This document shows positions 4,201-62,750 of a stretch of DNA of 64,000 nucleotides, in pieces (within the stretch, counting starts at the first letter, position 1; every line of letters begins with the position of its first letter). A program made the translations under genes and the position numbers. This DNA is from a bacterium (GTDB lineage Bacteria; Patescibacteriota; Minisyncoccia; Phycocordibacterales; UBA5272). The DNA is taken from NCBI GenBank assembly GCA_043765155.1, contig JAYUJP010000027.1, positions 1,349 to 65,348 on the forward strand, in the 5' to 3' direction. The notes beneath the pieces are model-generated. The model was not told where the DNA came from. It saw only the letters and a program-made list of their open reading frames with translations, and ran no database searches.

Positions 4201-7200
4201 CCAATTCAAACTTCTTTGGATCCAGTGCTGGATTTAATGCTTTTAACGCAAGTAGTTCTAACTTTATTGGTAATAGTGCTGGATTTGCAGCATCTAACGC
4301 TAACGCCTCAAACTTCTTTGGACCTGCTGCTGGATTTGGCGCGACTGGCGCAGATAACTCAAATTTTATCGGTGCTCAATCTGGACAGGACGCAATTAAT
4401 TCAAGATTTTCTAATTTTGTAGGGTATGCAGCCGGCTCGGGAGCTTTGAACGCAGATAATTCCAACTTTTTTGGCCAAAATGCGGGGTCTAATACAAATG
4501 GTGCGGCTAGTTCAAACTTCTTTGGATCCAGTGCTGGATTTGGTGCGACTGGCGCTGCTAATTCTAACTTTTTTGGTACCAATGCTGGAAATAGTTCTGC
4601 TAATGCTGGCAACTCTAACTTCTTTGGTCTGAGTGCTGGATTTTTTGCAATTAACGCAAATAATTCCAATTTCTTTGGTGCAAATGCTGGACTTGCTGCT
4701 GCTGACGCCGCCAACTCGAACTTCTTTGGACTTGAAGCTGGTAGTTACGCATCAAATGCATATGGTTCAAATTTTTATGGAGTAAGCGCAGGATACGGAG
4801 CCGTTAATGCTAATAATTCTAACTTCTTTGGTACTGGTGCTGGTAATATTGCTACAAATGCCGCTAATTCTATATTTATAGGTACCAATGCTGGAGCGAG
4901 TGACATTGTAGATAATACTGCTGGTGGTACAAGCATATTAATAGGTAGTGGCAGTAATACTGGCGGCTTCTCAAACTCTATTGCTCTCGGCGCTAATGCA
5001 GTTAATACCAAAACAAATCAATTCTTAGTCGGACCAGATTATTCTGACTTTTCATTCCGTGGAATTAATTACACTTTTCCAAGTGTTCAAGGAAATGCCG
5101 GTGATACATTGACCAATGATGGTACGGGAGTATTAAGCTGGTCAACTTTAACCGGTGGAGGAAGGCCGATTACCGCATCAAATGGTCTTACATTATTAGG
5201 GGTAGACGTGAAGCTGGGGGGAGCGCTTAGTCAGGATACTTCTATAACACAAGGCGCTTTTGATTTAAGTTTCGCTAGAAATGGTTATGAGCTTCAAAAT
5301 TCTAATGCGGCCCCATATCTTGGTATTGGCGGAGCTATAACTGCTAATAATTTTGTTGGTGCTCGTTATACTGATGCTACTAGCGACGTTCAAAATGGTG
5401 TAATACAATTTGGCGGTCCGCGCCTTGCGAGCTTAAGAAGTTATAATAATAGTTTTGGGTATGAGACCGACTCCTCAATTTATGCTTCTCAGTCTGGTCT
5501 AAATTTACTTTTTAATGATAGTAACTCGGTAAATACAAGCGCAAATGTTGATGTGAATGGTCTGATCGTAAGTACTAGTGATGTTACAAGTAGCAATACG
5601 GGATTTCTTGGTCTTACAAATTCGGGTACAGCAAATTTTACAGTATCTGGTCCTAGCATATCTAGCGGACTATCGCTCAATAATGTCTCCGGCTCAGTGA
5701 GGCTATCTCAGCAGATTTTTGGCACAACACAGTCTATGAACATAGTCTCTGGAGGTATAGAATTTGATACACAGTCTACAAATAGATTTCGTATAGAAAA
5801 TAACGGAGACTTAAAAGCATTTGCATATGGATCTGGCAGAAATGATACAAGTGTCAGTACGCCATTTAACTTTTTATATACTGACTCAACAGGAGTCTTA
5901 TCGTCAGCACCTATTTCACTACTCGGGGGTAATGCCAGCAGCAGTATTATAGCAAGTAACGGACTTAACGCATCTGGCACAAATATAAAACTCGGTGGTG
6001 TGCTAACTCAAAATACAAATATAAACTTTGCTACAAATACTCTCACCTTTGACCAGAGTAACTTAAATTCTCGTTTTAAAATAAAAGGAGCGAGTGGATA
6101 TTCTACCCCATCAAATAGAACCCAATCTCTTTTTGAGGCTGAGCATTATGCAAATGCTGGATTCTCGATAGAAAGTTTTGAAAGTGGCCCACTCCTCGCA
6201 AATAAACATGGGACCAAATTAAATTTTACCAATAATCTATCTAACCCCTCTCTTGATCCTCTGGGCTCGTATATTAGAGGTGATAATCTTACAGGTGACT
6301 TTGAGTTTGGCACTAATGCGGGAGAGTCCGTAACATTAGGATCAGGTGGAGTTAGCGTTAATTCAAATAGTTTTATTTATCTATTTGGTAGTGATATACA
6401 ATTATACTCGCCAATAGTAAATTTTAGTCAATTTGGTAGCACTAGAGATGATAGTGCCTCTACTACACCGTCTAATTTTCTATATACAGATATTAACGGC
6501 TCTTTAAAATCTGCGCCAGTATCACTACTCGGTGGTAACTCGACTAGCTCATGGTCTCTGCTTGGCAATGCTGGCACTAATCCTGCAACTACCTTTTTAG
6601 GTACTACAGATGCACAAGACTTATCTATCAGAACTAATAATACAGAAGTTGCAAGGTTTGGGCAAAATAATAATTTTGCATTTGGTGTTGGTGCTCAGGC
6701 TGTTAACTCAGATAGCATAGCTATGGGAGCAGGAGCAGGAGCAGGAGCAACTAATGCACCATTTTCTAACTTCTTTGGGTCTGGTGCTGGATTTGGAGCT
6801 ATAAATGCAGCTAACTCTATATTTATAGGTACAAATGCTGGTGCAAATGACGCAGTAAATAATACTCTTGGTGCCGATACAAGTATACTCATAGGTAACA
6901 ATACAAACACAGGAGGATTTTCAAATTCTATCGCACTCGGTGAGGGAGCGGTAAACACATCTGCAAATCAGCTTTACATTAGGAACGCGATTACTAATTT
7001 TAATCTAGCTGGAGTAAATTACAGTTTTCCAACTGTGCAAGGCGCTCTTAATACTACTCTGAGTAACGATGGAAATGGAAACTTAACCTGGGTTGCACCC
7101 GGAGCAGGATCTATCACAGCATCAAATGGACTTAACGCTGTCGGAGTAGATGTAAGACTGGGTGGTGCTTTAAACACCCCAACTACAATAAACGCAACTG

Positions 7201-9785
7201 GAACAAACGACTTAACCATTTCCGGTACGTCGTATTCAAATAGTACGGGACTGTTTTCGGTCAACAGATTTGCAGGCACCTCAAACGCTGGAGCTGCAAT
7301 ACAAGCCAATTCTACCGCTGGTGCTGGACTTAATATGCTACAAAATGTAGGAGGTAGATTTGATGCTGTTAGTTTTGCTAATGGAGCGGGTACTAATTAT
7401 GGAACCCTGAACACAGCTAGCTTGGGACAGTCTGATACCTTTGCTACAAATGTGGGATCTAGAAGTGTGGCATCTATGAGTATAGGTGGTGGTAGCGTAG
7501 GCCAGTTACGCGGAGCTGAGAATGTTTCTAGTATCACAAATGGATCCGCTGGTAGAGCTTTTGGATCTTTGAATGAAGTAAATTTACAAAATGGTACAAG
7601 TGTAAATGAAGCATATGGTGTATTTACTGCTCTGAGTAAGCCAAGTGGTGCAACAGTAGGTAGATACTCAGGCTTTATTATGGAGGATAATAATACTGGT
7701 GTCGCTAATAGAGCAGGTCTTGCCTTGGTCTCACTTTCTAGTGTAAATTATACTGGCGAATGGGGTATATATAATGCTCTGAATAGAAATAATGCAATTA
7801 ATGGATCACTGATGGTGGGATCTACCACAGCACCAACAGAAAGACTAGACGTAGCGGGTAATCTCAGACTAAGAGGTGCCTTTATGCCGGGCAATCAGGC
7901 TGGTGGAGTGGGGTCACTACTCATATCTCAGGGTCCTAACGTTGCGCCAATATGGTCCAGTACTTCTACACTCGGATTATTGTCTAGTGCAAATAATGGC
8001 CTAACAGTAAACCCGGCAGGCAATGCGCAGCTTGGTGGTGGTCTATTACAAGACACAACTATTATCAATAATAACTTTGCGCTAGATATTGGTACAGGTA
8101 TAAATGGTCTTAAGGTAGCAGCTAATGGGCAAGTGGGTATTGGAAATAATATTGGAGCTATTCCAGGTGCAACTCTCTTAGTAAAAGATACAGTGGCGGG
8201 ATTTGCCTCACTCAATGTAGTCGGAGGGACTTCTGGAGGAGGAGCAATTACTAGATTTATAAATGACACTGGAGCGACTTACTTAACTGGTCTATCAGGT
8301 TCAAATAATAGTGCGCTTGGACTAGGTAATTATATTATACGCGATCAAAATGCAGGATTAAACAGATTGGTAGTAGCCTCAAATGGTAATGTAGGAATAG
8401 GAGATTTTACAAATGTGAATCCAGTAGAAAAGCTATCTGTAGCTGGAAATATAAACATATCTTCTGGTAGTGCTTATATGCTTAATGGTGTGAATGTGTT
8501 AAGATCACAAACCGCTTTGAATAATATTTATGCTGGTCCAGCTGGAAATCTAACTGGTACAGGTCAATACAATACCGCTATAGGATATGATTCATTTAAT
8601 GTAAACACTACTGGACAGCAAAACACTGCGACCGGTTTTCATTCTATGAATGGTAACACCACAGGTTCATTTAACACTGCAAATGGTCTAAATTCACTGT
8701 ATTTCAACTCTACAGGGAGTAACAATAACGCATTTGGATATAATGCTCTCTTTAGAACAACTTCATCTGGAAATAATGCATTCGGTAATGCTGCTTTGCA
8801 AGAAAATGTAAGTGGGATAGATAATGTGGCTATGGGTAATTCAACATTATCATTTTCATTAGGAAATACTAACTCAGCTTTTGGTTCGGCAGCCGGCGCA
8901 CTTTTAGTAAACGGTAATAATAATACCTTCAGTGGCTACAAAGCTGGTTTTGCTCAAACAGCAGGTAGCAACAACTTGGTGCTTGGCGCAAATACGGATC
9001 TTGCAAACCTTACAGGTTCTAATCAGTTAAATATTGCAAATATTATTTTTGGTACAGGACTCACTGGTTCAGTTAGCGCACCGCTAGGTAATATAGGCCT
9101 CGGCACCACCACCCCCGCCGAGCGCCTTCAAGTCCTCGGCGACATCCGTATAGGTACAAGTGGTGTTAACGGCTGTCTCCAGAACTTTGCAGGTACGGCT
9201 ATAGCTGGTGTATGTAGTTCAGATGAAAACCTAAAGATAAATATACAAGATCTAGCTACTAGCACAATGGACAAATTCTCAAAATTAAGATTCGTCTCAT
9301 ATAACTGGAACAACACAGCAGGTGAATTATACAAAAAGGATACTACTGCCACCAATACGGGTATATTAGCGCAACAAGTAGAAGGTATATTCCCAGAACT
9401 AGTAACTACAGATAATAAAGGATACAAGGTAGTAGATATCTCAACTCTGTTTATGTATAGTATGCAAGTAACCAGAGACCTAATAAATAGATTAGACGCA
9501 GAAGTCATTAATCTTAAGAATATAGTAGCGAGCTCCCTCACCGCTGAGCGTATATATGTAAAGAGGGTAGAGGCGGAGGAGGTAATAACACAAAAGTTAT
9601 GTGTTAAAAGCGCGTGCGTGACCGAAACAGAATTTTTAGAAATTATAAATAATAGAAACAACACAAGCGCTAACAATAATATAAATACAAATACAAATAC
9701 AAATACAAATACAACAACAGATACTATGAGCACAAGTACTCAAGATGTACCAGCAGCTACTAGTACAGAAATAGTAATACCTTAA
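1227..9785 (+). CDS. Giant (2852 aa) secreted glycine-rich repeat fibre protein with a C-terminal intramolecular-chaperone (Peptidase S74 / endosialidase-chaperone-like) domain
   Basis: N-terminal signal peptide. About 30 tandem ~20-aa units of type SNFFGxxAGxxAxNAxx. Tail-fibre-like motifs WSLLGNAGTNPAVNFIGTTDAQD and NIGIGTTTPxxxLxVxG. C-terminal CSSDENLKINIQDL...LRFVSYNWNN...GILAQQVEGIFPELV...GYKVVDISTLFMYSMQ matches the S74 auto-cleaving chaperone (Ser-x4-Lys). Ends in an NTNTNT tail. Confidence 0.8.
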   Translation: MKTNTPQNSIHLKPSLTQIYFKVFAFVIIVSTLFSGISPAFAALPQSLSYTAVLRDSTGTPLTGTNDFKVRYYDASTAGILMYEEEFLATTINTGGTFFLPLGTGLPISGTFSSINFNSPVFITLNTRINLTPTYDGEMNPRIPLRSVPYALNSQKLDGRIVGGANGVVAYDASSTINTNGLNASGTINALGNVNIAGTTTASSIFSTLINSITGIFSNLFLTSVATGTASDSVLVRDTVTGEVKQDTFANLLSSAITNTISFATSTNVLTSNVGGVISTTAIPAGASCIPGGSSPLTNECQGTSALQANTTGVRNSAFGDLTLASNTVGVSNTALGYSALAANVSGSNNGAFGGFSLFKNVSGNGNLANGISSLFNNVSGSRNTGVGNFSLTKLVTGVENIAIGFNAGFSQLGGDSNIIIGSNLDVPDLNGSNQLNIGDIIYGVGVSTSGGGNIGIGTTTPNAQFTTTGSVQFAGIGNSATNTNILTVDAAGNVETRSIVSLLAASASTTNIVSFATSTNIFTSNVNGVVSTTSLAGLVKNTKWYSENLAAPIIAPVATGLASIAVGDGAAATGRNIYAFGDEAGRGSNSSYSNFFGWRAGKNSGNGGTSENNFFGIAAGEGATNVAGGNFFGSRSGGDAINASFSNFFGESAGELAIRASFSNFFGRAAGSGAINANNSNFFGLEAGRNASNAYGSNFYGVGAGYEAINANNSNFLGTGAGNFATNAANSIFIGTNAGTSDLVDNTTGGTSILIGRNTNTGGFSNSIAIGESAINDRVNQFLVGPNYSDFSFRGVNYVFPASQGATGTTLVNDGSGVLSWAAAGASTSTNAWSLLGNAGTNPAVNFIGTTDAQDFIIRTDNVQTGKISADGTVISFGINAGVGTTNALSSSFIGVNSGSGAINAFFSNFFGQNAGANVINANRSNFIGINAGNGASAAQYSNLFGFNAGVDATNAIHSNFIGTGSGQDAINSQRSNFIGFDAGAGAPAASNSNFFGSSAGFNAFNASSSNFIGNSAGFAASNANASNFFGPAAGFGATGADNSNFIGAQSGQDAINSRFSNFVGYAAGSGALNADNSNFFGQNAGSNTNGAASSNFFGSSAGFGATGAANSNFFGTNAGNSSANAGNSNFFGLSAGFFAINANNSNFFGANAGLAAADAANSNFFGLEAGSYASNAYGSNFYGVSAGYGAVNANNSNFFGTGAGNIATNAANSIFIGTNAGASDIVDNTAGGTSILIGSGSNTGGFSNSIALGANAVNTKTNQFLVGPDYSDFSFRGINYTFPSVQGNAGDTLTNDGTGVLSWSTLTGGGRPITASNGLTLLGVDVKLGGALSQDTSITQGAFDLSFARNGYELQNSNAAPYLGIGGAITANNFVGARYTDATSDVQNGVIQFGGPRLASLRSYNNSFGYETDSSIYASQSGLNLLFNDSNSVNTSANVDVNGLIVSTSDVTSSNTGFLGLTNSGTANFTVSGPSISSGLSLNNVSGSVRLSQQIFGTTQSMNIVSGGIEFDTQSTNRFRIENNGDLKAFAYGSGRNDTSVSTPFNFLYTDSTGVLSSAPISLLGGNASSSIIASNGLNASGTNIKLGGVLTQNTNINFATNTLTFDQSNLNSRFKIKGASGYSTPSNRTQSLFEAEHYANAGFSIESFESGPLLANKHGTKLNFTNNLSNPSLDPLGSYIRGDNLTGDFEFGTNAGESVTLGSGGVSVNSNSFIYLFGSDIQLYSPIVNFSQFGSTRDDSASTTPSNFLYTDINGSLKSAPVSLLGGNSTSSWSLLGNAGTNPATTFLGTTDAQDLSIRTNNTEVARFGQNNNFAFGVGAQAVNSDSIAMGAGAGAGATNAPFSNFFGSGAGFGAINAANSIFIGTNAGANDAVNNTLGADTSILIGNNTNTGGFSNSIALGEGAVNTSANQLYIRNAITNFNLAGVNYSFPTVQGALNTTLSNDGNGNLTWVAPGAGSITASNGLNAVGVDVRLGGALNTPTTINATGTNDLTISGTSYSNSTGLFSVNRFAGTSNAGAAIQANSTAGAGLNMLQNVGGRFDAVSFANGAGTNYGTLNTASLGQSDTFATNVGSRSVASMSIGGGSVGQLRGAENVSSITNGSAGRAFGSLNEVNLQNGTSVNEAYGVFTALSKPSGATVGRYSGFIMEDNNTGVANRAGLALVSLSSVNYTGEWGIYNALNRNNAINGSLMVGSTTAPTERLDVAGNLRLRGAFMPGNQAGGVGSLLISQGPNVAPIWSSTSTLGLLSSANNGLTVNPAGNAQLGGGLLQDTTIINNNFALDIGTGINGLKVAANGQVGIGNNIGAIPGATLLVKDTVAGFASLNVVGGTSGGGAITRFINDTGATYLTGLSGSNNSALGLGNYIIRDQNAGLNRLVVASNGNVGIGDFTNVNPVEKLSVAGNINISSGSAYMLNGVNVLRSQTALNNIYAGPAGNLTGTGQYNTAIGYDSFNVNTTGQQNTATGFHSMNGNTTGSFNTANGLNSLYFNSTGSNNNAFGYNALFRTTSSGNNAFGNAALQENVSGIDNVAMGNSTLSFSLGNTNSAFGSAAGALLVNGNNNTFSGYKAGFAQTAGSNNLVLGANTDLANLTGSNQLNIANIIFGTGLTGSVSAPLGNIGLGTTTPAERLQVLGDIRIGTSGVNGCLQNFAGTAIAGVCSSDENLKINIQDLATSTMDKFSKLRFVSYNWNNTAGELYKKDTTATNTGILAQQVEGIFPELVTTDNKGYKVVDISTLFMYSMQVTRDLINRLDAEVINLKNIVASSLTAERIYVKRVEAEEVITQKLCVKSACVTETEFLEIINNRNNTSANNNINTNTNTNTNTTTDTMSTSTQDVPAATSTEIVIP

Positions 9786-41862: not shown

Positions 41863-41999
41863 CAAACTAGAGAAGTAGATAAGATAAAAAATAGTACAGA
41901 GAACATAATAGCGCCGCCCGGAGGGCGGCGCTATTATGTTTACACAAAAGATATTCAAGTTTTACCCTTCATTTTTTATTCTATCAGTTTAGTTAGTAT

Positions 42000-42434
42000 T
42001 TACTTCCACACACCTAGCCATATTCCGATATACTCTACTACGCCGTATAAGAATATTATATAAAATATTATGCCGGCTATTAGTGCTAGCGCTAGCTTGT
42101 TTATGATTTCATTTCTACGCTTTTTGACATCGTCTAGGGTGCATACCCCAGCTCTTTTCATATAAAAGTAAAAAGCTACAAGCAATGCTATTAGTCCCAA
42201 AGCGCGGAATGCCCACTTATAAGTCCCGTAAAATATATTAGCAATATCACCGGCAATGCTAACACTAACTAACCCGAGAGAAAGTAGTATTATTGGTGAC
42301 AGGCAGCATAGCGAGGCTATAACTGCAGGTACGCTTGCTATCTTAAAAGCTTCTTTTAATTTTACAGATATTGGCCTAGTATCTTTAATTTGATCAGCTC
42401 TTATTATATTATATTTTGGTTTTGTTTTTTGCAT
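42000..42434 (-). CDS. Small membrane protein with an intramembrane CC motif, last gene of the msrAB operon
   Basis: SLCCLSPIILL in the first TM. Four TM helices. Function unknown, possibly thiol/redox- or metal-related. Confidence 0.35.
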   Translation of the reverse strand: MQKTKPKYNIIRADQIKDTRPISVKLKEAFKIASVPAVIASLCCLSPIILLSLGLVSVSIAGDIANIFYGTYKWAFRALGLIALLVAFYFYMKRAGVCTLDDVKKRRNEIINKLALALIAGIIFYIIFLYGVVEYIGIWLGVWK

Positions 42435-42476
42435 ACTTTTGATTAAGTGTAATCACCACTTAAGTATTTTTTTGTA

Positions 42477-43724
42477 TTATTTTAATAAGCTAGTATACTC
42501 ACCATAAGCCCCCTTCTCCATATCAGTTAAAGGTATAAATTTCATCGCAGCTCCGTTCATACAATATCTTTTGCCTCCTCTATCACTTGGTCCATCTTCA
42601 AATACATGACCTAGATGTGAGTCGGCTATCTTACTTCTAACCTCTGTTCTGGTTGAGAATATTCCATCATCAACGTGAAATGTCACAGCGTATTCAGATA
42701 TAGGCTTTACAAAGCTTGGCCAGCCTGTGCCGCTATTATATTTATCTTTTGATAAAAATAGTGGCTCACCAGAAACTATGTCTACGTATAGGCCCACCTC
42801 TTTGTTATCATTATAATTACCATTTGAAAATGGTTTTTCGGTACCACTATCTTGAGTTACTTTTAGGCTAATAGCGCTCAAAGTTTTTAATTTTTCATTT
42901 TTAATTTGCGGAGCAAAATTCTCCCAGCTTTTTACATTTTTGTTTTCGTTCAAATTGCTTGATACATTCTCGACTCTATTTACTTTTGTAGTAGATCCAT
43001 CTTGCCAGTGTAATTTGATAAAGTCATTACGCCCCGAGCCGTCACGATACAGCTCATATCTGACTGGATTCTTATCCTTATAATCTTGATGATACTCCTC
43101 GGCAGGATAAAAATTATTATAGGGTAATATTTCGGTTACTATTTTTTTAGTTAAAAATTTTGGATTATTATCTATATAATCTTGCGTTTCTAGTTTTGAT
43201 TTTTCTATTGCCAGCTTTTGCTCATCATTTGTATAGTATATAGCAGTAGTATATTGATAACCCTGATCTGCAAATTGCCCATACGCATCGGTCGGGTCTA
43301 TATGACGCCAGTATTTTGCAAGTAGATTATTAAGAGTGGTACTAGCACTATTATAATATACAAGTACCGCCTCACGCGCCCTCACATCACCACTACCAAC
43401 TTCAGCGTAGCTTGGATTTTCTTTTGCGCTATCAGCATATCCAGATATAGCAGTTACTACGCCTTCAAGATGATTAAATTCTGACTCGGTGCACCAGAAA
43501 CACCCACCAGCAAAAACTATTTTGCTATAATTTTTCTCTAATTCTTCTTGTGTTAAGTTTTCTTTGTTCATACTTTTGTTTTGTTTAAGATTTATAGCTT
43601 GCTCTAGTGTTAGATTTTTGGATGTATATTTTTGATATATTATAGTTGATAAATAGATGGCTATTACTAGTATTATACTATATATTATTGGAGTTGGTAT
43701 TTTTAGATTTAAGATTTTTTGCAT
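42477..43724 (-). CDS. msrAB: Membrane-anchored bifunctional peptide-methionine (S)/(R)-sulfoxide reductase MsrA-MsrB
   Basis: N-terminal TM anchor. MsrA GCFWCTE. MsrB HLGHVFEDGP...RYCMN. Confidence 0.85.
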   Translation of the reverse strand: MQKILNLKIPTPIIYSIILVIAIYLSTIIYQKYTSKNLTLEQAINLKQNKSMNKENLTQEELEKNYSKIVFAGGCFWCTESEFNHLEGVVTAISGYADSAKENPSYAEVGSGDVRAREAVLVYYNSASTTLNNLLAKYWRHIDPTDAYGQFADQGYQYTTAIYYTNDEQKLAIEKSKLETQDYIDNNPKFLTKKIVTEILPYNNFYPAEEYHQDYKDKNPVRYELYRDGSGRNDFIKLHWQDGSTTKVNRVENVSSNLNENKNVKSWENFAPQIKNEKLKTLSAISLKVTQDSGTEKPFSNGNYNDNKEVGLYVDIVSGEPLFLSKDKYNSGTGWPSFVKPISEYAVTFHVDDGIFSTRTEVRSKIADSHLGHVFEDGPSDRGGKRYCMNGAAMKFIPLTDMEKGAYGEYTSLLK

Positions 43725-43733
43725 ACTTTTTTG

Positions 43734-44117
43734 TTAATGTGTACTCTTTATTATTTTAGACAAAATAATTTTACCTATAGATAGGACACAAAGTATAAGC
43801 ATATTACTTATATAACTCGTGTGCGTAAAAGTTTTGTACACTATGTCTACAGTAAGCACAAGTATAGTTATGATATACAAGTATCTGTCCACTTTTGATC
43901 TTATATATTCGTCACGCTCATCATATATCTTTTCTTGCCATATGAGGAGGGCATACATAGCAGCTATTAAAGTTATAAATCCAGACACCATCATGCCATC
44001 ATTTAGTACATCAAAATAGTAGACAAAAAATAGAGTAACCAAAGATAACCCTAGGATCAATTCTTTTACTTTGTTTGAGATGCCCTGCAAAGCTTTTACT
44101 AATTTTAACTTTTTCAT
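43734..44117 (-). CDS. Small membrane protein partnered with the YozG-like regulator
   Basis: Four TM helices. Starts 39 nt after the HTH gene, which is the typical regulator-membrane protein pair. Confidence 0.4.
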   Translation of the reverse strand: MKKLKLVKALQGISNKVKELILGLSLVTLFFVYYFDVLNDGMMVSGFITLIAAMYALLIWQEKIYDERDEYIRSKVDRYLYIITILVLTVDIVYKTFTHTSYISNMLILCVLSIGKIILSKIIKSTH

Positions 44118-44155
44118 ATTATATTTTTTTATTTATAAGTTGATAATTTTATGTT

Positions 44156-44356
44156 TTATTTTTCTAAATAAAACAAATCTTCTACTTGCATCTTTAAAAA
44201 CTTAGCCAGCTTTAGAGCAAGAGTAATTGATGGCTGATATACAGACTTTTCTATTGATATAATAGTCTGCCTACTAACAGAAACACTCTCGGCAAGTTGT
44301 TCTTGTGAGAGCGATTTCTGCAACCTGTATTCTTTTAGATTATTTTTAAGAGTCAC
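44156..44356 (-). CDS. XRE-family HTH transcriptional regulator (YozG-like)
   Basis: 66 aa. LSQEQLAESVSVSRQTIISIEKSVYQPSITLALKLAKFL aligns with YozG-type Cro/CI HTH. Confidence 0.75.
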   Translation of the reverse strand: MTLKNNLKEYRLQKSLSQEQLAESVSVSRQTIISIEKSVYQPSITLALKLAKFLKMQVEDLFYLEK

Positions 44357-44389
44357 TATTATAAATGTTTATTTTTTAATAATATGAAA

Positions 44390-44842
44390 TTAGTTCTGTT
44401 TGATCATCTTATCGTCTTTCATCATAGTTCCAGATGCCATAGTATCTTTTTTCATCTCGTCCTTCATCATCATTTTTGCAGCCTTATATTTCATTACTGC
44501 CTTTTTAGTAAGATTACCATAATAACCTTTAGTTGAACCTTTTGGCATTTTAAGATATCCTTTTTCAATTAGCATCATTTGCAATTTCTCTATATCAGCT
44601 TTTTTAGATTTAGAATTTGTAGACTCGTACATCATTTCCATCTTCATAGCCTCCTCAGTCATTTTCATTTTATCATCCATTTTCTTGTCCATCATCTTAT
44701 CGTCTTTCATCATAGTTACAGATGCCATAGTATCTTTTTTCATCTCGTCTCTCATCATTGTTGTTGTAGGGGTCATTTCCATAGCGCTAGTAAGTGTTAT
44801 CGCTAGAGCAGCTGCTCCTAAAGTTGTTATTATTTTATTCAT
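44390..44842 (-). CDS. Secreted methionine-rich (about 20% Met) protein with a central PG-binding-like domain
   Basis: Signal peptide. 30 Met in 150 aa. Duplicated MMKDEMKKDTMAS-TMMKDDKM modules flanking ADIEKLQMMLIEKGYL...GYYGNLTKKAVMKYK. Confidence 0.6.
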   Translation of the reverse strand: MNKIITTLGAAALAITLTSAMEMTPTTTMMRDEMKKDTMASVTMMKDDKMMDKKMDDKMKMTEEAMKMEMMYESTNSKSKKADIEKLQMMLIEKGYLKMPKGSTKGYYGNLTKKAVMKYKAAKMMMKDEMKKDTMASGTMMKDDKMIKQN

Positions 44843-45344
44843 ATTTTTTTATTTTCTAAAGCCTTAGCCTTAAAGAGTTAATTTATTTTGTAATTTGTAT
44901 GCAAAGCCATCTTCACATATGTAAAGTATACTTTACTTTAATTTAAAAGTCAACAAGTTATTTCTAACAAATAGAAATGATGGGGATAAGTCTTGTGTAT
45001 AGTAAATTAAAACTAATAAATATAAAGTAGATATTAAGTACTTTACTTTTATATATATATGTGCTATAATATTATGATCTTTAAATTATCATTTGTATTA
45101 TTTCAATTTTTCGAGCTAACGATTTCTATAGCAGTAAGGTCTTATAAATACAATTGGGTACTGGCAAAAATAAAATAATTTTTAAAATTTACAAATTTTA
45201 CTTAATTTATTTTTGTAGCAACGAGTACGTGGTGATGATTATGAGATTAGAAATAATTAACAAATAATAATTATAAAATATTTTTTATTAATTCTCTATT
45301 TATTATATATAGAGATATTTTAAATATTTTTACAAAAACAAAAT

Positions 45345-46676
45345 ATGTATAACAGCAGAAATGGTGGAGGTAGAGACGGGGGTAGTCGTGAAGGGGGAAG
45401 TAGAGAGGGCGGATCAAGAGGAGGATTTTCTTCTGGATCACGTGGCGGCTTTGGAGGTGGACGCGGATCTTTTGGTGGTAGTCGCGGCGGTTCACGCGGA
45501 GGATCAAGAGGTGGCAATGGAGGTGGCTTTGCTCGCCCATTTGATCCAAAGAGAAGTTTTAAAAAAGACAATATAGACACAAAATTATTTATAAATAAGG
45601 CGGTAGTAGTAAAGGATGTTGACGTATACATACCAAAACATTCTTATGCTGATTTTGACCTTTCAGAAAAGTTACAGGCAAATGTAGCTCATATGGGTAT
45701 CAATCACCCAAGCCCAATCCAGGATCAGGCTATACCAGTAGTTATGACTGGTAAGGACGTGATAGGTATAGCATCGACTGGTACTGGTAAGACTGCAGCA
45801 TTTTTGGTCCCAATGATCAAAAATCTAGAAGCTAATTACAAAGACAAAGTGATGGTCATGTGTCCAACACGTGAGCTTGCTGAGCAGGTTGAGGGTCACT
45901 TTAGAAAAATGACAAAAGATATGAAGCTATATTCATTTCCAATTGTTGGTGGATCGCCAATATTTAAGCAAATTCATGAGCTTAAAAATGGACTAGATAT
46001 GGTCATAGGAACTCCAGGTCGTATCAAGGATCTTATCGAGAGAGGTAAGATAGACATGGGAGACTTTAAATATGTAATCCTAGACGAGGCTGACAGAATG
46101 TTAGATATGGGATTCATCGGGGACATGCGTGAGATACTAGGTAAGATGCGCGCTGACAAGCAGGCATTATTCTTCTCAGCGACATTTTCAGATGACATAA
46201 AGAGACTCTGTAAAGACTTTCTAAAAGATCCTACAACCATTACTATCAAGTCAAGAGATACAAGTGCCAATGTGAATCAAGACGTTATCAAGTTCTCAGG
46301 ACGTGATGACAAGCTAAGGAAACTGCGTGAGTTACTAGATAGAAAAGATGTTAGCAAAGTTATAATATTCCGCGAGACTAAGCGTGATACTGACGGACTT
46401 GCTGATGATCTTCGTGATGCTGGATATGCTGCGAATGCAATACATGGTGACATGCGTAATAGCGAGCGTAAAAGAGCGCTAGCTGACCTTGCATCTGGCA
46501 AGGCTCAAGTAGTTATTGCTACTGACGTCGCAGCGCGTGGTATAGATATTAGTGATATTACTCACGTTATCAATTATGATATCCCAAATAATTATGAGAC
46601 ATATGTACATCGTATCGGTCGTACAGGACGCGCTGGTAAAACCGGCGAGGCTTATACTTTTATCGGAGGTAGATAA
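45345..46676 (+). CDS. DEAD-box ATP-dependent RNA helicase with an N-terminal RGG/Gly-Arg-rich region
   Basis: Q-motif. Walker A ASTGTGKT. VILDEADRMLDMGF. SAT-like and HRIGRTGRAG. About 60 aa of (S/G)RGG repeats at the N-terminus. Confidence 0.85.
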   Translation: MYNSRNGGGRDGGSREGGSREGGSRGGFSSGSRGGFGGGRGSFGGSRGGSRGGSRGGNGGGFARPFDPKRSFKKDNIDTKLFINKAVVVKDVDVYIPKHSYADFDLSEKLQANVAHMGINHPSPIQDQAIPVVMTGKDVIGIASTGTGKTAAFLVPMIKNLEANYKDKVMVMCPTRELAEQVEGHFRKMTKDMKLYSFPIVGGSPIFKQIHELKNGLDMVIGTPGRIKDLIERGKIDMGDFKYVILDEADRMLDMGFIGDMREILGKMRADKQALFFSATFSDDIKRLCKDFLKDPTTITIKSRDTSANVNQDVIKFSGRDDKLRKLRELLDRKDVSKVIIFRETKRDTDGLADDLRDAGYAANAIHGDMRNSERKRALADLASGKAQVVIATDVAARGIDISDITHVINYDIPNNYETYVHRIGRTGRAGKTGEAYTFIGGR

Positions 46677-55743: not shown

Positions 55744-56463
55744 ATGTCAGAAGAATCAAGAATCAAGAATCAAGATTTTAATAATCTAAATCATAAGCTT
55801 AATGATGCTAATTTCCTTTTAGAATATAAAAGTAAATATGATAACTATCAAGTGTCGCTAGTACCCAAAATATTAGGAGGATTTTTAGTCTGGAGCGGCA
55901 ATATATTTTACGGCGCTGCGCCGTCATATTTAAAGTTTAGAGCGATAGAGGTGATAGCGCGCGTACCTTATCAGTCTTGGGTCTCGGGCGCATATACGTT
56001 ACTCACATTATTTTATACTGATGAGAAAAAGGCGATAGACCTAGCTGACGCAAAATTATTTGCTAGGCATGCTAATGATAATGAGACAATGCATGTCGTT
56101 GTCATATCACATATTGTGAACGTAGAGCATAAAAATATAAATATATTTACTCACAGCATAATACCGATAATATTCTCTTTCTTTTACTTTTGGGTCTCAT
56201 ATCTATTATTTTTGATAAATAGAAAGTGGAGCTATGAGCTCAATTATCTTTTTGAAGATCATTCGTATCATCAGTATAATACCTTTATAAATAGATATGA
56301 GGAAAAGCTAAAAGCCAAAGAGGTATGCAGTGAATTTCTCAATTGGTATGGTCGGGGATGCAGTAACCAGTACGAATTCTTCTTATCGGTCCGTAATGAT
56401 GAGCTTATACATAGAAATTACAGTATCGAGGAATTAGAAAAATTTGAGAGAAATAATAAATAA
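55744..56463 (+). CDS. Alternative-oxidase-like membrane-bound di-iron carboxylate protein
   Basis: All four AOX iron-ligand motifs are present in order: IEVIARVP (cf. LETVAGVP), NDNETMHVV (NERMHL), LFEDHSYHQY (LEEEAIHSY), RNDELIHRN (RADEAHHRD). Hydrophobic membrane-binding segment between motifs 2 and 3. Confidence 0.55.
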   Translation: MSEESRIKNQDFNNLNHKLNDANFLLEYKSKYDNYQVSLVPKILGGFLVWSGNIFYGAAPSYLKFRAIEVIARVPYQSWVSGAYTLLTLFYTDEKKAIDLADAKLFARHANDNETMHVVVISHIVNVEHKNINIFTHSIIPIIFSFFYFWVSYLLFLINRKWSYELNYLFEDHSYHQYNTFINRYEEKLKAKEVCSEFLNWYGRGCSNQYEFFLSVRNDELIHRNYSIEELEKFERNNK

Positions 56464-58112: not shown

Positions 58113-60011
58113 ATGGCGAAAATAATAGGAATAGACTTGGGTACTACTAACTCAGCGGTTGCGATTATGGAGGGAGGTGTACCAAAAATTATCGAAAATC
58201 TAGAAGGTGCCCGCACTACACCATCAGTAGTGAGCGTATCTAAAAATGGAGACAGGACAGTAGGCGCTGTCGCAAAAAGACAGGCTGTGATGAATCCAAA
58301 AGATACAATATATGGAGTAAAGAGATATATGGGTCATGACTTTACAGACAAAGAAGTTGCTGATGACATTGGTAAGGTCTCATACGGAGTTAAGAAAAGC
58401 GAGACTGGCGGAGTGCTGGTAAATATCGGAGGCAAAGATATGCGACCTGAAGAAATATCAGCAATGATATTACAAAAGATAAAAGCTGATGTCGAAGCTA
58501 AGACTGGTGAGAAAATAACTGAGGCGGTTATCACTGTGCCTGCTTATTTTAATGACGCGCAAAGGCAAGCAACCAAGGACGCAGGAGCAATTGCTGGCCT
58601 AGACGTAAAACGTATTATCAATGAGCCGACAGCGGCAGCGCTCGCTTACGGTTTTGATAAAAAGACTAATGAAAAATTAGCGGTGTATGACTTTGGAGGG
58701 GGAACATTTGATATATCTATACTCGAAGTCGGTGATGGTGTTGTCGAGGTAAAGTCAACAGGAGGTGACTCACATCTTGGTGGACGTGATATTGATAATG
58801 AGATAGTTAGATATATCGCCGGAGAATTTAAAAAGGAGACTGGCCTAGATCTATCAAGTGACTCACTAGCTATGCAAAGACTAGACGAAGCCGCAGAAAA
58901 AGCTAAGCATGAATTATCAACCCAAGTTGAGAGTAAAATATTTTTACCTTATATCTCAGTCGGAGCTGAGGGTCCAAAGAATTTGGATGTTACGCTAACT
59001 CGCGCGCAACTAGAAAATATTGCGAGATCATTTGTCGAGAGGTCAATCAAGATAACAGAGCAGACCCTCAAAGATAGTGGATTTGCAAAGTCAGATATAT
59101 CAGAAATAATAATGGTAGGAGGACAGACAAGAATGCCGATGATAGTCGAAGCTGTCAAAAACTTATTTGGCAAGGAGCCAAATAGATCTGTGAACCCTGA
59201 TGAGGTGGTAGCGCTTGGCGCCGCTGTGCAGGCTGGTGTACTTCAAGGTGATGTAAAAGATCTGCTGCTACTAGACGTTATACCATTATCACTTGGTATT
59301 GAGACTATGGGCGGAGTACTGACTCACTTGGTCGAAAAGAATACAACAATACCAACACAAAGGTCACAGGTGTTCTCAACCGCTGCTGATAATCAGACTA
59401 GCGTCGAGATACATATAGCCCAAGGTGAGAGACCAATGGCAGCTGATAATAAGTCACTGGGCAGATTTATCCTAGATGGTATACCGCCATCACCAAGAGG
59501 AGTACCACAAGTTGAGGTGACTTTTGACGTGGACGCTAATGGTATACTTAATGTAAAAGCAAAGGATAAGACTAGCGGCAAAGAGCAATCTATAAGAATA
59601 GAAGCAAGCTCAGGACTAAGCAAAGAAGAGATAGCTAAAATGCAAGCCGATGCGGAGGCTAATGCCGGTGAAGATGCTAAGAAAAAGGAACTCGCCGAAG
59701 TTAAAAATCACGCAGACCAGACTATTGCTACCGCCGAAAAGTCACTCACTGATGCAGGTGATAAAGTTACCCCTGATCTTAAAAAAGAAATAATGGATAA
59801 GGTAGCTGATGTAAAATCTGCAAAAGATTCTAATGACTTAGAAAAATTAACCAAAGCAAATAGTGAGCTAAATACTGCGATGTATAAAATCGGTGAAGCT
59901 ATGAAAACTGGAAATGACGCAGCAGCTAGTCAAGAAGCGGGCCAAGAAAATAACCAAGACTCTTCTGAGCAAAACGAAAACAAAACAGAAGATGCTCCAG
60001 AAAATAAATAA
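58113..60011 (+). CDS. dnaK: Molecular chaperone DnaK (Hsp70)
   Basis: [18 protein letters not shown], and full-length Hsp70 architecture. Confidence 0.95.
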
Positions 60012-60050: not shown

Positions 60051-62750
60051 ATGAATCCTTCATTTAATAACTTTACCACTAAATCAAAAGAAGCAATCAG
60101 AAGGGCGCATGAGCTAGCTGTTGAGGCTGGGCAGTCAAATGTTAGTCCTGTGCATATGATGGGGGCGTTACTTTCTGACGAAGAGAGTATTGTATACTCT
60201 ATACTTGAAAAGTTACAAATAGATACCATACTATTTTCAGATACAATATCAGAGGCGATACATGTGTCAGGTAGTGGTAGTACTATGGCGCCAAGTTATC
60301 AGATGTATCTGACGGCTGAGCTTGCTGGCGCCCTAGAAAAATGCGGACAAGTGGCGCAAATGCTACATGATGAATTCATAGCGCCTGAGCATATATTTAT
60401 ATCATTACTCGACGTAGCGGGTCAGCTACGTGAGATTATTAATAGGTTCAGAATTGACCGTGATCAGGTTACCCGCGTATTATCACAAGCCAGGACTCAG
60501 GTCTATACTCAAAATGGAGCTGCTAAGAAAAACAAAACCTTGCTCAAGTATACTAGGAGCTTTACTCAGATGGCGCGCGAGGACAAGCTTGATCCAGTTA
60601 TTGGCCGTGACACCGAGATAATGCGCTTGATGCAGATAATCTCAAGACGTAGCAAAAATAATCCGATACTAATCGGAGAGGCTGGTGTGGGTAAGACTGC
60701 GGTAGTGGAGGGGTTAGCTTCACGCATAGCCAAAGGGGATGTACCTGACTCACTCAAAGATAAGGAGTTAGTCTCACTCGACCTGGGTATGCTTATAGCG
60801 GGTACAAAGTATAGAGGAGAATTTGAAGAGAGGCTTAAGAACATTATGAAAGAGATAACCGAGAGTCAAGGTAAGATAATACTATTCATAGATGAGCTGC
60901 ATACCATAGTTGGAGCTGGCGCTGCTGAGGGGGCTGCTGATGCGGCTAATCTTCTCAAGCCTGCGCTCGCTCGTGGTGAGGTACGCGTAATAGGGGCGAC
61001 GACATTAAAAGAATATCAAAAGCATATAGAAAAAGATCCGGCATTATCAAGAAGATTCCAGCCGGTATATGTAGAGGAGCCGTCAACTGATGACGCTATA
61101 ACTATATTACGCGGCCTCAAAGAAAAATATGAAGTCTTTCATGGGGTGCGTATTACTGACGAGGCGATACTTGCAAGCGTTAACCTATCAAGTAGGTATA
61201 TAACTTCAAGATATTTACCAGACAAAGCTGTAGACCTTATTGATGAGGCTGCTTCATCACTACGTATATCACTTGAAAATAAACCTCAAGAATTAGATAT
61301 AGCTCATAGGAAAATTCAAAGATTAGAAATAGAAAGATCTGCTATGGATACAGAGCTAATATCTAGCGTAGCCACATCAGACATTAATATCAAAAACAAT
61401 CTTACCAAAAGATTAACAGAAATAGATATAGAAATAGCAGATATAAAAGATAGTATACGAGACCTAGAAGTTAGATACAATAATGAAAAGGACTTGGTTG
61501 CCAAAATGCGCGACTATAAGAAAACTCTTGAGTCGCTTCGCCTAGAAGCTGACAATGCGCAGTTAAGGTCAGACCTAGCAAAAGTGGCTGAGATCAGATA
61601 TGTGAATATACCAAAGCTAGAATTAGACTTGGCTGAAGTTAACACAAGACTTGAAAAACTTCAGAAAAATAGAAGAGTGTTAAAAGAAGAAATAACTGAA
61701 GAGGACATAGCCAAAGTTGTATCGGGCTGGACAGGTATACCATTGCATAAAATGATGGCTGAGGAAAAAGAAAAGTTAGCAAGTATGGAGTCTTACTTAA
61801 AAGAGAGGGTAATAGGTCAAGATGACGCTATCAAAAGAATCTCGGACGCAGTACGTAGGTCGAGAATTGGAATCTCAGATCCAAATAGACCAATAGGATC
61901 ATTCTTATTTTTAGGCCCAACAGGTGTGGGTAAGACTGAGCTGACCAAGGCGCTAGCTGAGTTTATGTTTAACGATGAGAAGGCTCTGATTAAAATAGAC
62001 ATGAGCGAGTATATGGAAAAGCATAGTAGTAGTAAGCTTATAGGGTCGCCAGCTGGATACGTAGGTTATGATGAGAGTGGTATGCTGACTGAGGCAGTGC
62101 GTCACAGGCCATACGCGGTGATACTGCTCGACGAAGTCGAGAAGGCGCATCCGGACGTGTTTAACCTTATGCTCCAAGTCTTGGACGAGGGTAAGCTAAC
62201 CGATAATAAGGGGCGCGTTGCTAACTTTAAAAATACTATTATTATAATGACTAGTAATATAGGTAGTAATCATATACAAAAGATGCAGAGCTATGGATTC
62301 TCATCGGGACTACCCGGCGATGAGTATGCAAATGTAAAAGAAAAAGTTCAGGACTCGCTCAAAGAATTCTTTCGTCCAGAATTTCTAAATAGGCTAGATG
62401 ATATTATTATTTTTGATATCTTATCAAAACAAAATATAGAAAAGATAGTAAGATTATCACTGATAGAAATAGAAAAGAGATTAGTAGAAAAAGATATAAA
62501 TCTAAACGTGAGTGATGAGGCAGTTACGCATATAGCCGAAAAGTCTTATGATCCAAAATATGGAGCAAGGCCAATACGCAGATATTTGCAGAGCAATATA
62601 CTTAACAAAGTCGCGAGCATGATGATAGACAAAGTCTTTGACAAAGGTGGAATGGTATCTGTAGATATTAAAAAGGGGGAATTGATAGTAGAGAGTAAAA
62701 AGAAAGTAAGATTAAGCCTAGACAAAGCATTACTTAATTCTTCTTTATAA
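60051..62750 (+). CDS. clpB: ATP-dependent chaperone ClpB
   Basis: Clp N-domain. Two AAA modules ([18 protein letters not shown]). Long coiled-coil middle domain. Confidence 0.9.

Follow-up and report, generated by a model that had tools for sequence, protein, structure and literature searches.

A putative cell-surface methionine redox-cycling operon with a MerT-like membrane protein in a Patescibacteria-type bacterium

Extracytoplasmic cycling of sacrificial methionine residues has been experimentally established for the proteobacterial MrpX-MsrPQ system (PMC4436054). MrpX of Azospira suillum carries a signal peptide, is composed of 20% Met and 44% charged residues, and is regenerated by a co-regulated periplasmic methionine sulfoxide reductase (Melnyk et al. 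2015; PMC4436054). A second group of systems employs exported fusions of the methionine sulfoxide reductases (Msr) MsrA and MsrB (MsrAB). Those with a tabulated redox partner use thioredoxin (Trx) together with CcdA or DsbD and none is listed with a MerT-like partner (2026 review, PMC13488963; PMC9239216), the known relays being MsrAB2-Etrx-CcdA of S. pneumoniae, PilB-DsbD of Neisseria, and MsrAB-Trx-CcdA of F. nucleatum and H. influenzae (PMC13488963, PMC9239216, PMC3914529). A third precedent is found in the YoaS-YozG modules, which pair a small Cro/C1 helix-turn-helix (HTH) repressor with a small multi-transmembrane (multi-TM) protein and have upstream inverted repeats (bioRxiv 10.64898/2026.09.15.751765). 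Here we describe five consecutive genes, g1 to g5, at positions 42000-44842 of a 64-kb window (the whole stretch of DNA that was analyzed, 64,000 nucleotides of contig JAYUJP010000027.1), which bear likenesses to each of these systems. Judging from the sequence of the locus and its relatives, these genes probably form one operon encoding a cell-surface methionine redox-cycling defense of an uncultivated, ultra-small Patescibacteria-type bacterium, with a MerT-like membrane protein as a candidate reductant relay. The interpretation offered in the earlier note on this DNA found support in each of the computational tests that were available.

All five open reading frames (ORFs) run in one direction and are separated, from g1 to g5, by gaps of 33, 38, 9, and 42 nt (Table 1); the five co-directional minus-strand genes that an earlier note on this DNA had reported for the span are all present. 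The same note had credited the g1 product with a signal peptide and 30 Met per 150 aa, and this count was reproduced exactly: 30 of its 150 residues (20%) are Met, as compared to a median of 2.3% and a next highest value of 5.4% among the 58 window ORFs of ≥100 aa. Charged residues (K+R+D+E) account for another 51 of the 150, while His and Cys are both absent. The Sec-type signal peptide, judged by eye, comprises aa 1-20 and consists of MNK, a hydrophobic core, and TSA-ME, with cleavage predicted after TSA. The duplicated Met-rich module that had also been claimed is real. Its two copies, MMRDEMKKDTMASVTMMKDDKM at aa 29-50 and MMKDEMKKDTMASGTMMKDDKM at aa 125-146, follow the pattern MM[KR]DEMKKDTMAS.TMMKDDKM and are encoded by a direct repeat (Table 1). 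There are six M-x-[KR]-[DE]-x pentapeptides in g1, and the protein is not a member of the pentapeptide MXKDX repeat family TIGR02953 (10.8 bits, E = 0.35, cut-off 41). As to the peptidoglycan (PG)-binding-like domain of the earlier note, the PG_binding_1 (PF01471) match exceeds its Pfam cut-off (24.2 vs. 23 bits) but is marginal and partial (profile positions 3-37 of 57); longer homologues (P0012, P0015-16, P0018-19, P0021) have a precomputed PF01471 match and a full PG_binding_1 domain. In the AlphaFold2 model of g1, the predicted local distance difference test score is 76-88 at aa ~65-128 and <50 at aa 14-58 and 134-150, which fits disordered MMKD-type Met-rich arms placed around a small folded, helical, PG-binding-like core. 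Conservation of the Met-rich ORF had been set beforehand as a test, and 21 homologues were found, down to ~38% identity, with the same order of signal peptide (xSA-ME), Met-rich arm, core, and Met-rich arm. Little or no variation is seen at A20 and M21 across these homologues, and invariant residues are likewise found in the conserved core (LQxxLIEKGYL...GYYGxLTKKA).

g1 exhibits the traits of an MrpX-type scavenger, namely an export signal, ~20% Met, high charge, unfolded arms, and a reductase that is co-encoded and, with a shared operator, predicted to be co-regulated, and the locus as a whole resembles MrpX-YedYZ (MsrPQ) in combining an exported, largely disordered, charged Met-rich protein and its reductase with a stress regulator and a membrane sensor (PMC4436054). 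By analogy, the logic common to both systems would be sacrificial Met oxidation followed by enzymatic regeneration. The differences are substantial, however. MrpX was described without sequence conservation and has no sequence homology to g1, whereas g1 belongs to a conserved family with an ordered PG-binding-like core. The reductase here is a thiol-based MsrA-MsrB rather than the molybdoenzyme MsrP with its haem/flavin partner MsrQ, the regulatory genes encode a putative XRE repressor and a 4-TM protein rather than the SigF/NrsF sigma/anti-sigma pair, and the host is Patescibacteria-type rather than a proteobacterium.

The reductase gene, g4, matches both Msr families in Pfam (PMSR, PF01625, 170.2 bits, 4.9e-50; SelR, PF01641, 140.4 bits, 3e-41) as well as in NCBIfam (TIGR00401, 163.2 bits; TIGR00357, 176.3 bits; both above their cut-offs), and the catalytic motifs GGCFWC of MsrA and RYCMN of MsrB are present. 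Its MsrB domain is of the 1-Cys type, with Thr replacing the resolving Cys (GTGWPSF). The 1-Cys type was considered as a marker to distinguish MerT-linked from CcdA-linked systems and was rejected, as GTGWPSF/RYCMN is found in all MsrB domains of both. The protein has one N-terminal hydrophobic helix (aa 11-29) preceded by a short positive n-region, in the manner of a signal anchor, and relatives exist in which a MerT-like 3-TM domain or a 6-TM CcdA domain carries a fused MsrAB at its C-terminal (outer) end. Because the anchor is signal-like and the natural fusions occur at the C-out ends of both domains, the catalytic domains of g4 are predicted to face outward. For the location of the g1-g5 system as a whole, "extracytoplasmic" or "cell-wall" is a safer description than the "periplasmic" of the earlier note, which is doubtful because the host looks Patescibacteria-type and is probably monoderm. 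Related loci also encode TM-anchored proteins with an MsrB domain only, in which CG(I/V)(N/S)GC follows the anchor (L050 5193-5765, L063 4155-4697, L081 1618-2124, and L088 4003-4506). Their genes lie directly 5' of the MerT-like gene or overlap it by 4 nt, and in L083 and L088 an apparently cytoplasmic MsrA is found between the anchored MsrB and the MerT-like gene.

The last gene of the operon, g5, had been described as a CC-motif protein of unknown function. Profile comparison leads us to revise this, as g5 is by this measure a distant homologue of MerT at the superfamily level. Its scores against the MerT models of Pfam (PF02411, 27.9 bits, cut-off 32.9) and NCBIfam (NF010314, 32.5 bits, cut-off 150) fall below the cut-offs, whereas hhalign of the g5 family against Tn501 MerT gave a probability of 95.8% and placed the TM1 CC on the MerT CC and C98 on C76. 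By hydropathy, g5 has three TM helices, with C43-C44 within TM1 (ASLCCLSP) and C98 in the basic TM2-TM3 loop (GVCTLDD). Its family comprises >402 clusters at 90% identity and 326 representatives at 50% identity (E up to 1e-3), among which the invariant elements are ASLCCLSP in TM1, YGxYKWxFR in the outer loop, a single loop Cys (GVCTLDD..RRNEI), and FLY in TM3. None of 77 members lacks any of the three Cys. Like MerT and MerTP (PF02411; NF010314, NF033556), g5 thus has three TM helices, a TM1 Cys-Cys followed by xxP, and a loop Cys aligned with MerT Cys76. Unlike MerT, it has one cytoplasmic Cys instead of two, its neighbors are Msr, Trx, and thioredoxin reductase genes, and mer context is lacking, with merR, merP, and merA found neither in the operon nor among the window genes examined. 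The cargo that we propose for g5 differs accordingly from that of MerT, as it would be a disulfide (reducing equivalents) rather than Hg(II). Both the N-tail and the TM2-TM3 loop are strongly basic, and an N-in, C-out topology is therefore predicted; the Msr, Trx, and HMA domains of the fusions described below are all located at the predicted C-out end of the 3-TM module. Homology of g5 to CcdA was also considered and rejected, as g5 had no Pfam match to the DsbD_TM domain (PF02683), which has 6-8 TM helices and one PCxxP Cys per half, and hhalign against the CcdA domains of related loci gave a probability of 0.5%. The likeness of g5 to CcdA is therefore one of analogy, both functional and architectural.

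The gene neighborhoods of the g5 family were examined in genome_contigs (one genome per GTDB species), which yielded 265 matching stretches, with 80 loci kept. The labels of the metagenome-assembled genomes behind these 80 loci read Patescibacteria-type, unassigned "bacterium", or names such as Saccharibacteria and Bdellovibrionales, the last of which we take as automatic. It is from the labels of the genomes with the closest homologues that the host is assigned here as Patescibacteria-type. The MerT-like gene directly adjoins MsrAB, MsrB, or MsrBA in 50 of the 80, in upstream, downstream, and divergent orders, and nearly all of the adjoining Msr proteins have an N-terminal TM anchor. A metagenome sample centered upon Msr contained 13 close and 67 distant relatives of MsrAB, of which 5 and 0, respectively, have a MerT-like gene after MsrAB. 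The two modules are also joined within single proteins. MerT-like(3TM)-MsrA-MsrB fusions form ≥23 protein clusters (421-502 aa, 56-100% identical, on contigs of up to 371 kb), and no CcdA or Trx was found near those examined, which stand alone. Similarly, P0160, present on seven contigs, joins the MerT-like 3-TM module to a C-terminal thioredoxin (WCPTC). CcdA-MsrAB and CcdA-Redoxin occur as parallel fusions in the same loci, and more distant members of the g5 family are MerT-HMA fusions of the MerTP type. Each kind of fusion places an external CxxC-type domain on the C-out end of the 3-TM module, which is the arrangement of MerTP, with HMA at the C terminus in MerTP and Trx or MsrA in the relatives of g5. 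A thioredoxin reductase gene is found within ~6 kb of the MerT-like gene in six of the closest loci and is directly adjacent in L010 and L018, while clusters of the g1 type contain either a MerT-like gene or CcdA-Redoxin and never both. Overall, the coupling of g5 to anchored Msr and thioredoxin is among the strongest gene-neighborhood and fusion signals obtainable. Where the earlier note had left the CC protein as an electron or metal relay, it is the electron option that receives strong genomic support, both from the 50/80 adjacency and from the MsrAB and Trx fusions.

In comparison to the CcdA- and DsbD-linked MsrAB systems, the locus similarly sets an anchored MsrA-MsrB fusion beside a presumed reductant-supplying membrane protein and a stress regulator, except that the operon in the window has a 3-TM, three-Cys MerT homologue in place of CcdA/thioredoxin and its MsrB is 1-Cys. 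CcdA, Trx, glutaredoxin, and thioredoxin reductase are all missing elsewhere in the 64-kb window, which says nothing on the rest of the genome. As a tentative proposal, to which we give somewhat less than an even chance, g5 and several hundred Patescibacteria-type relatives would constitute a new class of transmembrane thiol-disulfide transporter that is not homologous to CcdA/DsbD, and a minimal, self-contained surface antioxidant system of ultra-small bacteria would be made up of this transporter, the Met-rich wall protein, and the XRE/4-TM sensor. Using the Cys-to-Cys hand-over that MerT applies to Hg(II), g5 would draw reducing equivalents from cytoplasmic thioredoxin and deliver them to exported MsrAB and thioredoxin domains. 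A literature search found no link between MerT-like proteins and Msr or a thiol relay and no Met-rich/Msr system of Patescibacteria, with many subscription journals lying outside that search. Two further arrangements of the MerT-like module may be mentioned. The P0160 loci (L094-L096 5001-5777) have no Msr within 5 kb and an RND efflux pair as the convergent neighbor, and in P0165 (598 aa) the module is C-terminal on a large polytopic membrane protein without a Pfam match.

We also examined eight independent contexts of divergent g1 homologues (L005, L006, L008, L018, and L090-L093; 38-58% identical to g1). The g1, HTH, and 4-TM genes occur together in all eight and are contiguous in seven, with g1 standing apart in L092 with its own operator copies. 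The pairing of a Met-rich ORF with msrAB is likewise seen in related genomes, as MsrAB lies in the same co-directional cluster in 7 of the 8 contexts, while the eighth contig breaks off inside a CcdA-Redoxin gene, which in the closest relative of this locus lies ahead of MsrAB. The position and the companions of MsrAB vary among these contexts. Depending upon the lineage, the genes inserted between g3 and MsrAB encode CcdA-Redoxin fusions, glutaredoxin-like proteins, a dual-specificity phosphatase, a DedA/VTT protein, or FAD-dependent disulfide reductases, with thiol redox as the common theme. Of the 80 loci that the g5 search retrieved, eight encode genuine exported proteins rich in Met, and all eight contain Msr. 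These proteins are of several kinds, i.e., g1-like proteins, a different Cys-containing PG-binding-like type, and Met-rich-linker-Trx fusions. No credible Met-rich exported ORF was found in the 30 Msr-less loci, in which the low-threshold matches look like spurious ORFs, and both the Met-rich gene and the operator are absent from all 67 distant MsrAB loci of other phyla.

Several additional protein types occur in the same neighborhoods. In five loci, a membrane-anchored protein carries a Met-rich (MMK/MEK) linker of 60-100 aa before a WCPxC Trx domain (L033 2575-, L053 2201-2809, L058 2818-3390, L080 7021-7626, and L087 3525-4154). These genes lie just 5' of CcdA(-Redoxin)-MsrAB-MerT-like genes, and those of L033 and L080 have the palindrome of g1 (see below) in front of them. 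A second exported Met-rich type with 16% Met (L015 1249-1698) has an HHQGAVEM motif reminiscent of DUF305-type metal-binding proteins, and its gene shares a locus with an HTH/g3/MerT-like/MsrAB cluster. Four loci (L008 5383-5931, L090 4240-4839, L091 4309-4896, and L092 103-663) have a gene for a TM-anchored DM13 protein in divergent orientation to the Met-rich gene, and the two genes share the operator-containing intergenic region. To this DM13 set belong the proteins P0326, P0348, P0354, P0377, and P0396. MsrA-DM13-MsrB fusions of about 531-537 aa also exist, and DM13 may be a further component of the surface Msr system.

The XRE-type regulator recognized in the earlier note is borne out by a clear HTH_3 match of g2 (PF01381, 53.6 bits, 2.3e-14), and g2 orthologues (50-79% identical) are present in all g1 loci. 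g2 resembles the YozG-like small repressors in architecture, as it combines HTH_3 and small size with a multi-TM neighbor and an upstream inverted repeat. It is predicted to be the autorepressor of the operon. The putative operator is the perfect palindrome GTAAAGTATACTTTAC, of the form TGTAAAG-N4-CTTTACA, which overlaps the -10 box of the operon promoter (Table 1). The promoter itself is a consensus match only, and its equivalent position is conserved among related loci. The exact GTAAAG-N4-CTTTAC occurs as a single copy in the window, whereas (T)GTAAAG-N4-CTTTAC(A) is found 5' of g1 in every locus, usually in two copies that overlap the -35 and -10 elements. The window also has an imperfect half-site pair (GTAAAGTA...TACTTTA) on the minus strand at 45015-45055, with a spacer of 13 nt rather than 4 nt, about 100 nt 5' of the promoter and within a 500-nt divergent region shared with a DEAD-box helicase gene; related loci have a complete second palindrome over the -35 element instead. 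An Rfam search for riboswitches or small RNAs in the 500-nt region 5' of g1 found none, and the window gave tRNAs only. Across 880 kb of related loci there are 15 non-redundant exact palindromes, all of which are intergenic. The genes downstream of them encode Met-rich exported proteins (9), HTH proteins (3), TM-anchored Met-rich-linker-Trx proteins with WCPxC (2), and one other TM protein. Wherever the Met-rich gene and the regulator gene are apart (L092, L014, and L015), each has its own copy of the palindrome, an arrangement that is the signature of a small regulon that would be controlled by the adjacent XRE protein and have Met-rich exported proteins as its characteristic targets.

The g3 product, which had been listed as a small membrane protein of unknown function, is reassigned from its synteny with g2 as the partner of the regulator, its gene being directly 3' of g2 in the seven related loci where tblastn detected both. 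Hydropathy predicts four hydrophobic helices. The match of g3 to DUF6773 (PF20563) is partial and below the cut-off (20.7 bits, E = 4e-4, cut-off 27), and some orthologues have weak precomputed matches to this family. In an alignment of 10 orthologues, Met42 is invariant and Met43 nearly so in the predicted outer loop 1, His99 is invariant in loop 2, and a DERDE motif is invariant in a predicted cytoplasmic loop. From this pattern we infer a sensing site in the outer Met/His and a putative regulator-contact site in DERDE. The g2-g3 pair is thus similar to YoaS-YozG in that a ~66-aa HTH gene adjoins a small multi-TM gene with a putative inverted-repeat operator upstream. It differs in that g3 is not a DUF2975 protein, having only the weak DUF6773 match, in that the HTH gene precedes the membrane protein gene, and in that the module appears to control a defined regulon of Met-rich proteins and Msr, which provides a candidate physiological signal.

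The conservation of this module also bears upon the role of g1 itself. Since g1, g2, and g3 keep together in 8 of 8 contexts while the position and companions of MsrAB vary, and since g3 has a conserved outer-face site, the three could be a signaling triad in which g3 reads the oxidation state of g1 as a redox bait or ligand and MsrAB resets it, so that g1 would not be a bulk sink. We regard this as quite improbable. The separation of the Met-rich gene from g2-g3, with an operator of its own, in L092, L014, and L015 is a better fit to a regulon target, and a stoichiometric sink would accord with the near-consensus promoter and the 30 Met of each chain, although neither argument is decisive.

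Several observations weigh against a methionine redox-cycling operon with g5 as its relay. Fold searches gave no match, the one bearing on the PG-binding-like core being uninformative, and the PG_binding_1 match of g1 is marginal and partial. The outward orientation of MsrA-MsrB claimed in the earlier note agrees with the anchor and the fusion architecture, whereas the positive-inside rule alone is ambiguous for the g4 anchor. From its sequence position, and by analogy with structural models of MerF and MerT, the TM1 Cys pair would lie nearer to the cytoplasmic face, away from an external Msr. MerT-like genes have no Msr neighbor in 30 of the 80 loci, and no consistent partner was found among the neighbors of these Msr-less genes. 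Most loci with MsrAB and a MerT-like gene do not have a Met-rich gene, which makes the sink an accessory that some lineages have added to a wider core. Lastly, six Moranbacteria-type loci have a MerT-like gene together with a complete CcdA, Trx, and MsrAB set, with both flanking MsrAB. The MerT-like protein is therefore not simply a CcdA substitute and may do something else. These last two observations would also be expected if MsrAB served as a generic repair enzyme for envelope proteins, g1 were a low-complexity wall protein, and g5 were a non-redox accessory such as a scaffold, an insertion/stability factor, or a sensor, with CcdA/Trx encoded elsewhere; as 64 kb of the genome is in view, a distant CcdA is possible. 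We nonetheless judge this explanation unlikely. Three Cys that are invariant in 77 of 77 family members are hard to square with a non-redox scaffold, and the MerT-like-Trx fusion has the architecture of CcdA-Trx and DsbD. Furthermore, the genes marked by the operator are specifically Met-rich ones, and a high Met content reappears on unrelated scaffolds in Msr loci only, which argues that the methionines themselves are the point.

A further concern is that the Met-rich motifs, the outer Met/His of g3, and the MerT relative also resemble a soft-metal (Cu/Ag/Hg) system. In such an operon, g1 would be a Cu(I)/Ag(I)/Hg sponge similar to SilE/PcoE, g3 a metal sensor, and g5 a metal transporter, while MsrAB would be co-located or would protect the Met ligands. 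Met-rich motifs are classical Cu(I)/Ag(I) ligands, g5 is a true MerT homologue whose distant family members are MerT-HMA fusions of the MerTP type, and the outer face of g3 has invariant Met and His. However, no MerR/ArsR/CsoR-type regulator, MerA, MerP, HMA protein, or P-type ATPase was found among the window genes examined. g1 is devoid of His and Cys, g5 has only one of the two cytoplasmic Cys of MerT and does not reach the MerT cut-offs, and its conserved partners, including those in fusions, are Msr, thioredoxin, and thioredoxin reductase. The Met-rich linkers are likewise fused to WCPxC thioredoxins rather than to metal-binding domains. A role in soft-metal handling is consequently very unlikely in our estimation.

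Methionine redox cycling by the five products might proceed as follows. Without stress, the XRE repressor g2 would be bound to TGTAAAG-N4-CTTTACA over the -10 box. An oxidant would be sensed by g3 at its outer-face Met-Met/His site, and its cytoplasmic DERDE loop would then lift the repression. Exported g1 would lodge in the cell wall, where its exposed Met would be oxidized sacrificially by HOCl, H2O2, or similar oxidants, and the outward MsrA and MsrB would restore Met from the S- and R-sulfoxides, both in g1 and in other surface proteins. The oxidized Msr Cys, i.e., the C75-C78 disulfide of MsrA and the sulfenate of the 1-Cys MsrB, would be re-reduced by thiol-disulfide exchange with the TM1 Cys-Cys of g5. 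This pair would hand the disulfide to Cys98 and from there to cytoplasmic thioredoxin/thioredoxin reductase. Such a relay would be a disulfide version of the MerP-to-MerT-to-MerA hand-over of Hg(II) and would function as CcdA/DsbD do.

Patescibacteria have tiny genomes and lack a respiratory chain, and as they live attached to surfaces, oxidation of the envelope should matter to them. The locus suggests that the Met-cycling strategy of MrpX-MsrPQ arose independently in this group with thiol-based MsrAB. It also offers a defined putative operator and regulon for the widespread and functionally obscure modules of a small XRE repressor and a small membrane protein, with Met oxidation at the outer face as a candidate signal. 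The g5 family may represent a second, non-CcdA route for supplying extracytoplasmic thiol enzymes with reductant across the membrane. Should the MerT-like relay prove true, the evolutionary origin of mercury transporters would be seen anew, with either these transporters derived from a disulfide-relay scaffold or the scaffold derived from them.

Table 1. Features of the g1-g5 operon and its borders (coordinates of the window)
Feature	Coordinates	Strand	Description
g1	44390-44842	minus	150 aa, exported Met-rich protein
g2	44156-44356	minus	66 aa, Cro/C1 (XRE) helix-turn-helix regulator
g3	43734-44117	minus	127 aa, 4-TM protein
g4	42477-43724	minus	415 aa, signal-anchored MsrA-MsrB (outward orientation predicted)
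g5	42000-42434	minus	144 aa, 3-TM MerT-superfamily protein, CC motif
Direct repeat of 88 nt, C-terminal copy	44394-44481		family D2, 88% identical to other copy, encodes Met-rich module
Direct repeat of 88 nt, N-terminal copy	44682-44769		family D2, encodes Met-rich module
Predicted g2 operator (perfect palindrome)	44921..44936		-10 hexamer TATACT at its center
Sigma-70-like promoter, TTGACT-17 nt-TATACT	44925..44953	minus	10/12 consensus matches; ~80 nt 5' of g1 start codon
Perfect GC-rich hairpin of 18 bp	41902..41940		between convergent g5 and metG; minimum free energy -38.8 kcal/mol, z = -8.7 (region)

The operon is flanked by housekeeping genes, with metG and an AI-2E transporter gene on one side and genes for a DEAD-box helicase, S6, SSB, and S18 on the other. 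Its base composition is like that of its surroundings, and it is therefore not an obvious island. The hairpin between g5 and metG is likely to be a bidirectional terminator, judging from its structure, and a terminator scan based upon T-runs did not call it. Use of the Gracilibacteria genetic code (code 25) was considered and rejected, as the long ORFs are intact under table 11 and the stop codons number 37 TAA, 9 TAG, and 2 TGA. The DEAD-box helicase (45345-46676, plus strand), which is divergent from the operon, has a low-complexity N-terminal tail of ~70 aa that is rich in G/R/S (RGG-like). A DEAD-box helicase is also the +1 neighbor of the MerT-like gene in six Msr-less loci, although this synteny is probably coincidental. 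Elsewhere in the window, an ORF of 2852 aa (1227-9785, plus strand) has a C-terminal Peptidase_S74 domain, an intramolecular chaperone of the endosialidase/tail-fibre type, as its sole Pfam match, which suggests a giant self-cleaving surface fibre. An AOX-like di-iron protein (55744-56463, plus strand; Pfam AOX, 30.9 bits) is encoded 12 kb from the operon, just 5' of a probable GrpE gene (inferred from the order in L005), with DnaK at 58113-60011 and ClpB at 60051-62750. Its orthologue in L005 (8737-9492, 71% identical) lies directly 3' of the MerT-like gene and is followed by GrpE and DnaK, and the AOX-like gene may be part of the same stress set as the operon.

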